64,000 nucleotides of DNA from Escherichia coli (GCA_902500125.1 GCA_902500125.1_4132.1), one strand, 5' to 3'; positions 59,920 through 64,000 are shown, counted from the stretch's first letter. Made by a program: numbers and translations. Notes: generated from the sequence alone by a model not told the origin.

Positions 59920-60147
59920 ATGACAAATACTTTTAAGTACTACCTCAATACTCTAAATGAACTAGAGTACGCGAAGTTTCTCGCGGATTGTTCGTGGCTA
60001 ATTGAGCTAAAAAAATATAACAGTACTGGATGTAACCTTATGCTGAACAATGCACTTGATACCCTTGTAGTGAGCATTTTACACAACAACATCTGCGGGG
60101 ATAGAAACAAACAATTATCAAAAATCTTAGTACTGCTATCTATATGA
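59920..60147 (+). CDS. mini-protein, tandem small-paralog array member 1
   Basis: track ORF; RBS AAGGAGA; first of ~19 abutting 59-75 aa ORFs. Confidence 0.5.
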   Translation: MTNTFKYYLNTLNELEYAKFLADCSWLIELKKYNSTGCNLMLNNALDTLVVSILHNNICGDRNKQLSKILVLLSI

Positions 60148-60347
60148 ATATCGAACAGTACTACATCGATGCACTACCAACAAAAGGTCTACGTGAAAGC
60201 CTACTGCATACACAAACTAATTTCAAACACCTCAAACGTAGCCCTAAACTCCTGAACTCGTACAGGAATAATAACATAAGAAATGCTTTACAAGGGGTAG
60301 AATGTATGCAATACTATTACATCCTTACCCTATTAATCGAGTACTAA
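60144..60347 (+). CDS. mini-protein, tandem array
   Basis: track ORF; ATGA overlap; N-terminal ..EQYYIDALP. Confidence 0.5.
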   Translation: MNIEQYYIDALPTKGLRESLLHTQTNFKHLKRSPKLLNSYRNNNIRNALQGVECMQYYYILTLLIEY

Positions 60348-60348
60348 T

Positions 60349-60558
60349 ATGAATACTGAACATAAAGAATTCTACACCAAATACCTTAGCAACGAAGAAC
60401 AATTGTTTCTAAGGAGTGTATCACCTGTAAGTACCAATACTCAATTCGGTAGAGATTGCTTTAATAATTGTATACGTAGTACTCTAGAAGCAATCGAATG
60501 CAATAACAAAAATATTATGTACTCAGGTTTAATAGGACTAATATATTTCTATGAATAA
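60349..60558 (+). CDS. mini-protein, tandem array (near-duplicate of 63333..63542)
   Basis: track ORF; MNTEHKEFYTKYLS..FGRDCFNNCI..YSGLIGLIYFYE. Confidence 0.55.
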   Translation: MNTEHKEFYTKYLSNEEQLFLRSVSPVSTNTQFGRDCFNNCIRSTLEAIECNNKNIMYSGLIGLIYFYE

Positions 60559-60745
60559 TCATAAAGATTTCTATTGTAGTAAACTACCCAAACAAGAACA
60601 GCTATCATTCTCTTTAGCACCACCTATGAGAAAGGATAATCTGTATTATAATTACGATTTCAGGATGGTGACACGTTATGCAATAGAACATCAATTTCCT
60701 GAAACTAAGTACTTATCTATCATGAACATCATCTTTAAGTTCTAA
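60551..60745 (+). CDS. mini-protein, tandem array (paralog of 63535..63723)
   Basis: track ORF; MNNHKDFY.. Confidence 0.5.
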   Translation: MNNHKDFYCSKLPKQEQLSFSLAPPMRKDNLYYNYDFRMVTRYAIEHQFPETKYLSIMNIIFKF

Positions 60746-60756
60746 AAGAGTACTAT

Positions 60757-60969
60757 ATGAAAACTATGAACATTCATCAGTACTACTTGGATATTCTCCC
60801 TAAAGATGTACAGTTCATCCTTAAACAAGAATACAGTACTTTAAAAAACCTTAAAAGAACCGCACCGAATGTATTAATCCTGCACCAAGAAAATGTAGTT
60901 GATAATATTCTACAAGGTGTACCAGGAACCGAGTACTTTAACATAATAAGGCTAATTACATTACCATGA
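60757..60969 (+). CDS. mini-protein, tandem array
   Basis: track ORF; ..IHQYYLDILP.. Confidence 0.5.
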   Translation: MKTMNIHQYYLDILPKDVQFILKQEYSTLKNLKRTAPNVLILHQENVVDNILQGVPGTEYFNIIRLITLP

Positions 60970-61151
60970 ATCATATATTATACTATTACCAAAATCTATC
61001 CGACAGGGACAAGTACACCCACAACTCCCATGTATGGTACTACAAACGCGGTAGTATAAGGGACAAACAACATTACTTCAGTACTGCTATAAAAGAAACA
61101 CTAACAACTAAGTACACGTACAGAGCAGTACTGAAACTTATTGATATGTAA
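60966..61151 (+). CDS. mini-protein, tandem array
   Basis: track ORF; C-terminal ..YTYRAVLKLIDM. Confidence 0.5.
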   Translation: MNHILYYYQNLSDRDKYTHNSHVWYYKRGSIRDKQHYFSTAIKETLTTKYTYRAVLKLIDM

Positions 61152-61161
61152 AGAGAATACT

Positions 61162-61347
61162 ATGAATACATTTGAGTACTATACAAATAAACTATCTATG
61201 CCAGAAAGATCTCATCTCTATGTGTGGAGAAATGCGTATAAAAGCGGCAATAAACTTATACAAAGAAATTCCCTTACAGTGTGTACAAATTTAATTAAAG
61301 CAGAGTACCGCACATATATTGAAGTACTGAAACTAATCTCTATCTAA
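61162..61347 (+). CDS. mini-protein, tandem array
   Basis: track ORF 61141..61347 trimmed to MNTFEYY; C-terminal ..YRTYIEVLKLISI. Confidence 0.5.
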   Translation: MNTFEYYTNKLSMPERSHLYVWRNAYKSGNKLIQRNSLTVCTNLIKAEYRTYIEVLKLISI

Positions 61348-61355
61348 GGTACTCT

Positions 61356-61535
61356 ATGCAAGAATTCTATATCTATAAACTTCAGCACAAAGATAGATAC
61401 AACTATAATAAATTCCAAAGGTACTACACAGTCGGGAACAAAAGAGATAAAAAACGATACTTTCTATCATGTACAGTAGAAGCACAAAACGAAAAGTACA
61501 CGTACAGAGAAGTACTGAAACTCATCTCTATGTAA
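61356..61535 (+). CDS. mini-protein, tandem array (59 aa)
   Basis: own translation MQEFYIYKLQ..YTYREVLKLISM; below track cutoff. Confidence 0.45.
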   Translation: MQEFYIYKLQHKDRYNYNKFQRYYTVGNKRDKKRYFLSCTVEAQNEKYTYREVLKLISM

Positions 61536-61543
61536 GGAATAAT

Positions 61544-61723
61544 ATGCAAGAATACTATATAGAACACATAAACATTAAAGACCGTTTCATGTACGACACC
61601 TTCGTGAAGTACTACAACCTGGCAACTAACAGTACTAAAAATATTAATCTCAATAGCTGCATTCATCACGCACTAACAAAAGATAATCCCTTCAGGGAAA
61701 TCCTCGCACTAGCATCTGTATAA
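61544..61723 (+). CDS. mini-protein, tandem array
   Basis: track ORF 61469..61723 trimmed to MQEYYIEHI. Confidence 0.5.
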   Translation: MQEYYIEHINIKDRFMYDTFVKYYNLATNSTKNINLNSCIHHALTKDNPFREILALASV

Positions 61724-61733
61724 AGGAAACCAA

Positions 61734-62571: not shown

Positions 62572-62572
62572 T

Positions 62573-62755
62573 ATGCACAAAGAATACTACACACAATTTC
62601 TCCCCAGCATTTTTGAACACTACGCCAGATACAAAGTCCCTATGGATAACGATTTGGCAGTACTGGGATTCAATAACTGCATAGAACGAAGTATAGAAAA
62701 TAGTAGTAGTTATGACCAGCTATATAACACTATCCTACTTATATTCAGGTACTAA
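62573..62755 (+). CDS. mini-protein, tandem array
   Basis: track ORF; MHKEYYTQFLP..ILLIFRY. Confidence 0.55.
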   Translation: MHKEYYTQFLPSIFEHYARYKVPMDNDLAVLGFNNCIERSIENSSSYDQLYNTILLIFRY

Positions 62756-62756
62756 T

Positions 62757-62945
62757 ATGCATAAAGAATACTACACAAAATATTTCCCAATGTACCTCAG
62801 TACTAATCTATTAGATAAACCTCGCGGTATCAATGCACAAAACGATAAAGTGTACTTTACTATGTGCACTAAAGCATGTATACTAGATTTTGACAGCTAT
62901 CATCGAGTACTGTATCATACCCTGTACCTAGCTTTCGTATTCTAA
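62757..62945 (+). CDS. mini-protein, tandem array
   Basis: track ORF 62712..62945 trimmed to MHKEYYTKYFP. Confidence 0.5.
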   Translation: MHKEYYTKYFPMYLSTNLLDKPRGINAQNDKVYFTMCTKACILDFDSYHRVLYHTLYLAFVF

Positions 62946-62954
62946 AAGAACAAT

Positions 62955-63140
62955 ATGCATAAAGAATTCTACTTAAGCCATCTCGATCTAAACTCCCAAA
63001 TGCTTATACCACTAATCCCAATAGATATCAAGGATAAGAAAAATACCGAACAATTCATTTACCATACACAGTGTGCGATCACCCCAAATTACATTCCATA
63101 TGAATTGTACTACATTATCGCCCTAATATATAGGTACTAA
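62955..63140 (+). CDS. mini-protein, tandem array
   Basis: track ORF; MHKEFYLSHL..IALIYRY. Confidence 0.55.
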   Translation: MHKEFYLSHLDLNSQMLIPLIPIDIKDKKNTEQFIYHTQCAITPNYIPYELYYIIALIYRY

Positions 63141-63141
63141 T

Positions 63142-63327
63142 ATGCATAGAGAATACTACACACAATTTGTTAAAGGGAACTACAAACATGCCGTACCCAG
63201 AACCCCTTTAAATTCTCATGACCCAAGTACTATATTCTTGTTTAATGACGCAATACGTACAGTACTCAATACTAAAGATGAACAAGTGCAGTACGTATTC
63301 TTACTATTACTTATATACAGACACTAA
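63142..63327 (+). CDS. mini-protein, tandem array
   Basis: track ORF; MHREYYTQFV..LLLIYRH. Confidence 0.55.
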   Translation: MHREYYTQFVKGNYKHAVPRTPLNSHDPSTIFLFNDAIRTVLNTKDEQVQYVFLLLLIYRH

Positions 63328-63332
63328 CTAAT

Positions 63333-63542
63333 ATGAATAAAGAACATAAAGAATACTACTCCAAACACCTCAGCCCCTCAGAACAAATGTTTCTAAGGAC
63401 TACTCCACCTTTAAGTACTAATACATTTTTCGGCAGAGTATGCTACAATAATTGTATTCAAATGACTTTAAACGCAAACGAAGATGGTAACAGTACTAAC
63501 CTGTACTCAGGTATCATAGGTATACTATTCCTGTATGAATAA
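63333..63542 (+). CDS. mini-protein, tandem array (near-duplicate of 60349..60558)
   Basis: track ORF; MNKEHKEYYSKHLS..FGRVCYNNCI..YSGIIGILFLYE. Confidence 0.55.
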   Translation: MNKEHKEYYSKHLSPSEQMFLRTTPPLSTNTFFGRVCYNNCIQMTLNANEDGNSTNLYSGIIGILFLYE

Positions 63543-63723
63543 TTACAAAGACTTCTATTTGAATACACTACCTACTGTACTTTCTCTAAGTGCTCAATGT
63601 AAAATCCCGCTGGATAATGCTTACGCCAGATATAGCTATTCCATAACTGTTAATCGATGTATAGAGAATCATTGCAGTACTAACCAGTACTATAACATAA
63701 TCCTACTTATATTCAGGTACTAA
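63535..63723 (+). CDS. mini-protein, tandem array (paralog of 60551..60745)
   Basis: track ORF; MNNYKDFY..ILLIFRY. Confidence 0.5.
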   Translation: MNNYKDFYLNTLPTVLSLSAQCKIPLDNAYARYSYSITVNRCIENHCSTNQYYNIILLIFRY

Positions 63724-63724
63724 T

Positions 63725-63907
63725 ATGAATAAAGAACATAAAGAATTCTATATACGAAAACTAACATTCGTCCCCGTAAGAATATATAAAGAATGCGACC
63801 CAAGATTATACCTATGGCACTTCAATGAGTGCATAAAAGATTCTATATACCATAAGAACTATAAAGAACAATTGTGCTCAGTACTAACACTAGTACTATC
63901 ATATTAA
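63725..63907 (+). CDS. mini-protein, tandem array
   Basis: track ORF; MNKEHKEFYIRKL.. Confidence 0.5.
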   Translation: MNKEHKEFYIRKLTFVPVRIYKECDPRLYLWHFNECIKDSIYHKNYKEQLCSVLTLVLSY

Positions 63908-63922
63908 TTAATAGAGAATACT

Positions 63923-64000
63923 ATGTATAAAAACTTCTATATAAGTAAACTAAAAGAAAATGAACAAGTATGGATTAGATCTATAATTCCACTGGCATTT
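63923..64000 (+). CDS. mini-protein, tandem array (truncated by window end)
   Basis: ATG ~63923, MYKNFYISKLKENEQ..; continues past window. Confidence 0.4.
   Translation, partial: MYKNFYISKLKENEQVWIRSIIPLAF

Follow-up and report, generated by a model that had tools for sequence, protein, structure and literature searches.

A lineage-specific tandem array of mini-genes in an Asteriusvirus-like jumbo coliphage and its possible roles

Introduction

Most genes of jumbo phages lack a known function, and families of tandem paralogues are a visible part of the extra DNA that these genomes carry. One such family raises the question considered here: what would a phage do with some eighteen very small genes placed one behind the other on the same strand? 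These genes form an array that extends from position 59920 to the end, on the + strand, of a 64,000-nucleotide stretch of DNA from an Escherichia coli assembly (GCA_902500125.1); the whole of that stretch, at its full length, is referred to as the window. An initial annotation, made from the sequence alone, had recognized the array and had proposed that it encodes a family of tiny proteins expressed early in infection, which would suit roles in host takeover or anti-defense.

Our answer has two parts of unequal strength. The genetic and structural description of the array, that is, a family of protein-coding mini-genes confined to one clade of phages, arranged in what reads as a single operon and predicted in its largest sub-family to fold as a compact helical bundle, is near certain. 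The overall explanation that best accounts for this description is an operon of accessory, early-expressed, cytoplasmic mini-binders, and we consider the chances for and against it to be evenly balanced.

Results

The sequence of the window identifies its source as a 121Q/PBECO4-like (Asteriusvirus) jumbo coliphage. Over its last 4.2 kb, the window has megablast matches in 34 Asteriusvirus-like phage records; these are without exception jumbo phages of E. coli or Salmonella, and their genomes measure 310-386 kb. The closest are JP4 and SP27 (~97% identity), and 121Q is 92% identical. In the annotated relatives, the array region is a run of 'hypothetical protein' genes in which many units have no annotation. 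A more distant phage, JNE01, was traced via a divergent family member and keeps the layout of the array. The comparisons of orthologs, promoters and orthogroups that follow refer to a set of nine phages unless another number is given.

In the start-refined list of open reading frames (ORFs), the array is an uninterrupted chain of 19 ORFs, in agreement with the approximately 19 small ORFs counted in the initial annotation: 17 complete mini-genes (m01 to m17) of 59-75 amino acids (aa), one gene of 219 aa and an 18th mini-gene (m18) that is cut by the window end. The mechanical ORF list began four of these ORFs upstream of the conserved N-terminus of the family (61141, 61469, 62323 and 62712), and their starts were corrected. 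The mini-genes are divided among four sub-families: A (m03, m04, m10-m17 and the cut m18), B (m06-m09), C (m02 and m05) and D (m01).

All genes of the array are on the + strand. The first is m01 (59920-60147; 75 aa, D), which has an ortholog in 9/9 phages and is weakly linked to the other sub-families; its stop overlaps the start of m02 (60144-60347; 67 aa, C) as ATGA. The first A block follows with m03 (60349-60558; 69 aa) and m04 (60551-60745; 64 aa; 8-nucleotide (nt) overlap with m03), and then the second C gene, m05 (60766-60969; 67 aa; alternative start at 60757), which is mostly deleted in JP4 and 121Q. The B block is composed of m06 (60966-61151; 61 aa), m07 (61162-61347; 61 aa; orthogroup in only 3/9 phages), m08 (61356-61535; 59 aa; orthogroup in 4/9 phages) and m09 (61544-61723; 59 aa). 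The 219-aa gene (61734-62393) separates the B block from the second A block; it carries EEEFMYSTV and is the mid-array gene for which the motif EExFMxSTV had been noted. The second A block includes m10 (62386-62571; 61 aa; 8-nt overlap with the 219-aa gene), m11 (62573-62755; 60 aa; 96-100% aa identity in most relatives), m12 (62757-62945; 62 aa), m13 (62955-63140; 61 aa), m14 (63142-63327; 61 aa), m15 (63333-63542; 69 aa), m16 (63535-63723; 62 aa; 8-nt overlap with m15), m17 (63725-63907; 60 aa) and m18 (63923-64000), which is recognized as A type by a profile match (E 1.3e-6). The translation of m18, MYKNFYISKLKENEQVWIRSIIPLAF, is the start of the last array gene of JP4 (63 aa), with which the array ends in that phage.

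The mini-genes have the substitution pattern of coding sequences. When each window gene was compared with its most divergent same-length ortholog among eight relatives, the 290 substitutions were distributed over codon positions 1, 2 and 3 as 77, 58 and 155 (chi-square ~55, 2 degrees of freedom), and the pooled Nei-Gojobori ratio of non-synonymous to synonymous substitution rates (dN/dS) was 0.27. The initial annotation had regarded non-coding repeat DNA as the conclusion to be drawn if the frames were not conserved in related phages; they are conserved, including in JNE01, which retains the promoter type, the Shine-Dalgarno (SD) sequence, the gene sizes, the junction style, the order and the frames at ~31% aa identity for m11. 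In addition, the paralogues match each other at E down to 1e-30, and A-type genes are matched by a PHROG profile of independent origin, with E values as low as 8e-28. Together, these comparisons indicate that the mini-genes are protein-coding and under purifying selection.

The independent profile is PHROG 11711, a 62-aa family whose positions 1-62 are matched by m03 (E 1.7e-12), m04 (E 1.3e-22), m10 (E 7.9e-28), m11 (E 2e-24) and m17 (E 1.5e-6); the A-type genes other than these five match the A-type hidden Markov model. For m01 (D), m02 (C), and m06 and m09 (B), no PHROG match was found at E up to 0.01. Profile-profile comparisons with hhalign, using alignments built from the nine phages and database matches, link A and B over their full length (probability 85-87%, E ~5e-6) and A and C (probability 84%, E 7e-6). 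On these alignments, A, B and C are taken to be one superfamily, and D is a probable but unproven member of it.

The superfamily is restricted to one clade. Profile searches among 5.8 billion proteins collected 53 clusters for A and 37 for B, and an exhaustive HMMER search over 1.84 billion representatives returned 32 genuine members, all of the same clade; two further HMMER matches, to long eukaryote-like tandem-repeat proteins, were judged spurious. With tblastn the family was located in 36 phage records, all from E. coli or Salmonella, and every named source is an Asteriusvirus-like phage of these hosts or an E. coli assembly or metagenome that carries one. The database search that the initial annotation had recommended therefore confines the family to about 36 phage genomes. 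The entries for PHROG 11711 and PHROG 29152 (the family of the 219-aa protein, vide infra) carry no function, context or structure, and no description of the mini-protein family was found in the open-access literature; the mini-genes had been deposited as hypothetical proteins and grouped in function-less PHROGs, and the coupled-operon family itself is newly described here. Elsewhere in the window, the segment 46315-46452 (+ strand) gave a weak match to the mini-protein profiles (E 2.4e-4 with an all-member profile into which the query set had been built and 0.046 with that of sub-family A). The segment falls within a 257-aa ORF but in a different reading frame, and we treat this match as chance.

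The sequence features common to the mini-proteins are fewer than had been described. The shared N-terminal motif holds for the 10 A-type genes, as (N)xHKE[FY]Y, but not for all 17, in which only one Tyr is invariant; the C-terminal R(Y/H) ascribed to most of the genes was overstated, with the ending ...R[YH] in 5/17. Structure prediction, also recommended earlier, was more informative. From a 44-sequence family alignment, AlphaFold2 (AF2) gave a model of m11 with a predicted local distance difference test (pLDDT) score of 93.5 and a predicted template modeling (pTM) score of 0.78; its helices comprise residues 3-7, 12-20, 27-42 and 46-58. The A type is confidently predicted to be a compact four-helix bundle. 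An entropy map of the A family locates conservation at H2, K3, E4, [FY]5, Y6, L10, P23, L24, F33, I37, I41, position 50, L56, I57, F58 and Y60; most of these positions belong to the hydrophobic core and are spaced along helices 3 and 4, and variability is greatest in helix 2 and in the N-terminal half of helix 3. As modeled, the A family is a fixed scaffold with a variable face. No structural match to a helix-turn-helix or other known DNA-binding fold was obtained. The 19-residue Kyte-Doolittle mean reaches a maximum of 1.13 and is <0.9 for 15/17 proteins, values predicting that the mini-proteins are soluble; their isoelectric points (pI) range from 5.3 to 9.6, and Tyr accounts for 10.5% of the residues.

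The signals around the array are those expected of one transcription unit. A sigma70-type promoter, TTGACA-17-TACTAT, is located at 59866-59894 (+ strand; 10/12 matches in a consensus scan), with the 8-bp palindrome CAGTACTG in its spacer; this is the strong TTGACA-type promoter that had been placed at ~59860. Both of its hexamers are unchanged in the nine phages, they are kept in A4 though the first gene of that phage is only 64% identical at the protein level, and JNE01 has TTGACA-17-TACAAT at the matching site. The promoter is followed by the SD sequence TAAGGAG (59905-59911, + strand), seven bases before the first ATG and unchanged in the relatives. With an anti-SD duplex energy of -9.3 kcal/mol, the SD of m01 is the sole strong one in the array; the energies of the remaining cistrons range from +0.7 to -6.1 kcal/mol (weak, at -0.9 to -6.1, or none), although as a set these SDs are stronger than those of the other ATGs of the region (Mann-Whitney P = 1.5e-4). 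The stops and starts overlap or abut as had been reported, with junctions that run from -8 to +20 nt: 5 of the 18 are overlaps (-4 or -8 nt, that is, ATGA or 8 nt), 5 are gaps of 1 nt (TAATATG), 6 are gaps of 5-10 nt and 2 are gaps of 15-20 nt, so that 10/18 are at 1 nt or less. At the commonest junction, AGG TAC TAA T ATG, the last two codons of the preceding gene (Arg-Tyr) form an SD-like AGGT, and the RY ending accompanies the 1-nt gap for this reason. No convincing terminator was found inside the array; one weak 5-bp stem in m01 is within chance expectation.

From this organization we conclude that the region is probably one polycistronic operon, and termination-reinitiation coupling between its cistrons is the best reading of the junctions. 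Ribosomes would load at the SD of m01 and then move from cistron to cistron by termination-reinitiation, assisted by the weak SD-like AGGT or GAGT within the last codons of the preceding gene. A second sigma70-type sequence, TTGACA-17-TATCAT at 62890-62918 (+ strand), lies inside m12 and just upstream of m13; it matches the consensus at 11/12 positions and is exact in 7/9 phages scanned (A4 not included), being absent in JP4 and JNE01. Because it is inside coding sequence and missing in those two phages, we keep it as a candidate only, and it may be incidental.

The promoter type also bears on timing. The pattern TTGACA-N16-18-TAnnAT has 19 matches in the window compared with 2.25 expected (8-fold), every one on the + strand, which suggests that most of the window is a region transcribed by the host polymerase, that is, an early region. 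(These matches span 1447-46912, plus 59866 and 62890, and in at least five of them (C/G)AGTACTG immediately precedes the -10 hexamer.) For the related phage CBB, a concentration of RpoD-like promoters has been described among short hypothetical ORFs that are taken as early, host-takeover genes (PMC5259590). Given the promoter type and the analogy with CBB, transcription of the operon by host RNA polymerase early in infection is the best reading.

The history of the array can be followed by comparing its units within and between genomes. A total of 16-22 units per phage are arranged in a conserved order, D-C-A-A-(C)-B(3-6)-[219 aa]-A(9-12). The 165 proteins of the nine phages cluster into 29 orthogroups, and no genome has two members of one group; 7 orthogroups are common to the full set of nine, 14 are shared by eight or more, and the others occur in one to seven. 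The paralogues have diverged to 20-58% aa identity, and their nucleotide identity is high only at the ends of the units (0.5-0.86 in the first ~18 nt, 0.44-0.53 in the last ~24 nt); in mid-gene it is 0.29-0.34, the random level. Because orthogroups are never doubled and mid-gene identity is random, the duplications must be ancient. One example is the pair m03/m04, which recurs as m15/m16 (60343-60588 vs 63327-63572; 246 nt, 74% identity) with 58% protein identity for m03/m15 and 34% for m04/m16, so the 'roughly 65%' given earlier is fair for the pair overall; m15 and m16 are old duplicates of m03 and m04, respectively.

Loss of a unit is seen directly for m05. In JP4 and 121Q, a 168-bp deletion between TTCTA[A/C]AAGGT microhomologies has left a 52-nt non-coding remnant (window 60746-60969 vs JP4 L001 12945-12998 and 121Q L002 4945-4998) that still supplies the SD-like sequence of the next gene, and the start of m06 is intact. 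The array therefore has the marks of a turnover family, that is, tandem paralogues whose content differs between isolates by gain or loss of whole units. The proposal that it grew by segmental duplication followed by divergence holds for the distant past but not for the present, in which the 29 orthogroups are never doubled; the orthogroup distribution indicates that present copy-number variation is retention or loss of distinct old units and not ongoing amplification.

The 219-aa gene has a different distribution. Its protein matches PHROG 29152 (223 aa) with E 6.9e-113, residues 1-219 aligning with positions 1-223, and the 23 clusters retrieved for it belong without exception to this phage group. 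Its AF2 model is unusable (pLDDT 36.6). In EJP2, a phage classified as Asteriusvirus, the syntenic site (L012 4560-5380) contains a TTGACA-17-TATAGT promoter followed by a single 230-aa gene, the product of which is distantly homologous to the 219-aa protein (28% identity over 169 aa, E 4e-7); no mini-genes were found there, and tblastn gave no match to them in EJP2. Likewise, the first 50 kb of GAP32, a Cronobacter phage of a related genus, contains one gene resembling RCC1 (vide infra) and no family member. Since EJP2 holds only the homologue of the 219-aa gene, the 219-aa family would be the older anchor of the locus, and since EJP2 lacks the mini-genes, these would be accessory and dispensable. 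On this comparison, the mini-genes appear to be a later, dispensable expansion around the 219-aa gene, and the EJP2 locus is in effect either a natural deletion or the pre-expansion state.

The array is also the densest part of the window for a short palindrome. The window contains 202 sites for AGTACT, a 9-fold excess over the mononucleotide expectation, and 47 for the 8-bp palindrome CAGTACTG, a 74-fold excess; AGTACTG occurs 194 times compared with 8.6 in dinucleotide shuffles. The sites are found in coding DNA, where they occupy all three frames, and also in the spacers of promoters and the stems of terminators. Their density is 8.6 per kb in the array vs 2.8 per kb upstream, and 6.0-8.6 per kb in the arrays of all ten phages checked, JNE01 included. 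GAP32 has a 15-fold excess of AGTACT, and the density in EJP2 is 6.7 sites per kb, so the excess extends to the wider clade and is independent of the mini-genes. The closest analogue of the motif is HIP1, the highly iterated palindrome of cyanobacteria (PMC4390886), and no report of an AGTACT excess in these phages was found in the open-access literature. Codon usage in the array is reversed for Tyr (TAC 81 : TAT 46, vs 152 : 349 elsewhere in the window), to which AGTACT probably contributes, and likewise for Phe (TTC above TTT). GC skew flips sign near 50 kb and is negative through the array (-0.16 to -0.22), where AT skew is up to +0.2; the coding strand of the array (60001-64000) is only 13.5% G.

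Upstream of the array, on the - strand, are eight tandem paralogues (50562-59816) that relatives annotate as RCC1-like (beta-propeller). The gene that adjoins the array (58650-59816) is its divergent neighbor, with its own TAAATATGATATAAT box and AAAGGAGG SD, and a divergent control region of 103 bp is common to the two arrays. In most of the RCC1-like genes, a TAAATATAGTATAAT-like box is combined with a strong AAAGGAGG SD, and 5/8 have their own upstream GCCAGTACT...AGTACTGGC hairpin and T-run. By these signals, the RCC1-like and mini-gene arrays appear to be built for different regulation. The RCC1-like gene at 58650-59816 has no ortholog with >51% aa identity in any phage record, so this family also is highly variable.

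Downstream, an ORF-poor stretch of 1.3-2.2 kb follows the array in every relative examined (e.g., 121Q L002 7956-9923 and JP4 L001 16911-18262) and the 230-aa gene in EJP2. In 121Q, both strands of this stretch have near-perfect sigma70 promoters, several in all, and CAGTACTG pairs form hairpins in it; no transfer RNA gene was found there, and the stretch may encode a non-coding RNA or be regulatory. Beyond it in JP4 (L001 18262-28000) are dozens of small + strand genes at regular ~85-95 nt spacers, which suggests a repeated promoter or terminator cassette between the genes.

Discussion

What the mini-proteins do is the part of the question to which we can give only a graded answer. The overall explanation we favor is that the mini-proteins are non-redundant, accessory, cytoplasmic mini-binders on a shared scaffold, each paralogue presenting a different surface to a different protein of the host, of host defense or of a competing phage. 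The features that recommend the binder reading are the small size of the proteins, a variable surface on a shared scaffold, one ortholog per type, gain and loss of units, and absence from EJP2. By analogy with 'monkey-wrench' proteins, anti-defense loci and the multigene families of large viruses, host or defense proteins would be the obvious candidate partners. The 62-protein virion proteome of phAPEC6 includes no array product (PMC7247149). The binder role taken by itself, which rests on analogy, is a tentative assignment that is more probably wrong than right.

Several points weigh against this explanation. No transcriptome or functional study of an Asteriusvirus was found in the open-access literature. 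Profile searches of Pfam, NCBIfam and the PDB gave no significant match for the mini-proteins or the 219-aa protein (10 proteins scanned for Pfam and PHROGs and 6 for NCBIfam, the 219-aa protein included), and no fold relative of the mini-protein model was found. The AF2 model covers the A type only, and D (m01) is not significantly linked to A, B or C (best P value 0.003). The conserved unit ends may partly reflect constraint from translation initiation or from AGTACT and not from the protein. Purifying selection and one-to-one orthology are also compatible with regulators or assembly factors, and virion mass spectrometry often misses proteins of 7 kDa.

A more ambitious form of the proposal is that the array is a natural library of mini-binders, that is, one four-helix scaffold with at least 29 stable specificities, each directed early in infection against a different defense or host factor. 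Its units would be swapped or lost like cassettes at the conserved junctions, and a single coupled transcript would yield its products in fixed amounts; the unusually high density of AGTACT would mark the operon for a specific control, for example through binding of a phage or host factor that times expression or promotes recombination between units. In this full form we consider the proposal unlikely.

Of the explanations that compete with the mini-binder operon, the one that survives best is that the mini-proteins are nucleic-acid-binding regulators or architectural proteins that underwent a lineage-specific expansion and perhaps recognize AGTACT. There is a precedent in phage G, in which ~35 copies of a small zinc-ribbon protein have been proposed to be transcription factors or structural DNA-binding proteins (PMC7824862). 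In addition, 3/4 B-type proteins (m06-m08) are basic, with a pI of 9.6, and the clade-wide excess of AGTACT and its 8-bp form is array-dense in 10/10 phages checked. We judge this explanation somewhat less likely even than the library just described.

Improbable, and a step below the nucleic-acid-binding explanation, is that the mini-proteins work together with the neighboring RCC1-like family, as its chaperones, adaptors or assembly factors. The two arrays are divergent neighbors in every phage examined, JNE01 included, both are expanded and variable, and the RCC1-like proteins gp549 and gp551 are present in the phAPEC6 virion (PMC7247149). However, the EJP2 locus includes at least 13 large genes on the - strand (several annotated as GTPase regulator or BNR repeat, not each classed as RCC1-like) and GAP32 has its RCC1-like gene, both without mini-genes (in GAP32, for the first 50 kb). 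Furthermore, most RCC1-like genes (5/8 here) have their own signals whereas the mini-genes share one sigma70-type promoter, a difference in organization that argues for different timing.

The two remaining explanations have little left to recommend them. That the mini-proteins act at the membrane (in superinfection exclusion, as holin- or antiholin-like proteins or in envelope remodeling), with the C-terminal helix as an anchor, agrees with the hydrophobic ends of all members (e.g., LLLIYRY, VLKLISM and ILVLLSI), but the hydrophobic stretch is only ~10-13 residues long, the Kyte-Doolittle maximum is low, and the 13-residue C-terminal helix packs into the AF2 bundle with a pLDDT of 93 or more, so we regard it as very improbable. 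That the ORFs are not genes at all but non-coding repeat DNA, an AGTACT platform or a structured RNA with incidental frames would draw on the very high density of AGTACT in all three frames, on several units left unannotated in many GenBank records and on one of two 900-nt pieces of the operon transcript that folds better than its shuffles (z = -4.6; 20 shuffles each), but is scarcely credible and is rejected because of the substitution pattern, the retention of frames, sizes and junction layout in JNE01 and the confident AF2 fold obtained from the family alignment, to which can be added the second 900-nt piece (z = -0.6), which leaves a general structure signal in the transcript unsupported, and a sole sequenced deletion that is a multiple of three and leaves the next start intact.

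The array is a tractable case among jumbo-phage gene families: it has one promoter, ~18 conserved 7-kDa proteins, a confident predicted fold and a natural relative that lacks the mini-genes, and the gain and loss of its units are documented between isolates used for phage therapy. If its products are specific inhibitors of host or defense factors, they would make the array a convenient supply of small protein inhibitors and would help to explain differences in host range among Asteriusvirus phages; if they are not, the array would still be a good model for the birth and pruning of translationally coupled phage multigene families. The clade-wide excess of AGTACT, most extreme at this locus, is a separate question.

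Known systems resemble the array in different respects. The zinc-ribbon expansion of phage G likewise involves a small jumbo-phage protein that expanded in tandem and in one clade, and it is read as genome growth by tandem duplication; in contrast, the array proteins are predicted to be four-helix bundles, have no zinc-ribbon Cys/His pattern, and are old and diverged rather than very similar. We do not equate the family described in the 121Q paper with the array because that paper names no genes and its count does not fit the 16 mini-genes of 121Q. Loci for anti-defense (anti-CRISPR-like) proteins are similar in containing small (50-100 aa), fast-evolving, accessory proteins that have no homologues and are clustered, with early expression as a further likeness drawn by analogy. 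However, such loci usually mix unrelated families, whereas the array repeats one scaffold, and no Aca-like helix-turn-helix regulator or similarity to known anti-defense proteins was found with the general scans of the array proteins (10 for Pfam and PHROGs, 6 for NCBIfam), no dedicated anti-defense library having been used.

The host-takeover module of Bacillus phage SPO1 and the 'monkey-wrench' proteins of T4 are early gene clusters of large virulent phages. With these clusters and that of CBB the array shares many tiny ORFs behind strong host-type promoters and a dispensable or variable content; their genes are mostly unrelated, often with their own promoter and ribosome-binding site, whereas here one family occurs 18 times in what appears to be one operon.

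The multigene families (MGF) 110, 360 and 505 of African swine fever virus (ASFV) and the host-range families of poxviruses are generally linked to host range and immune evasion. Like the array, they are composed of tandem paralogues, differ in content between isolates, keep old members, and gain or lose them by recombination or deletion. Unlike the array, they belong to unrelated viruses, encode unrelated proteins and lie near genome ends, and a functional link to them is by analogy; with headful packaging, as in 121Q-type phages (PMC5646251), 'ends' cannot be given a fixed meaning. As a lineage-specific tandem multigene family in a large virus, the array is a well-known kind of feature.

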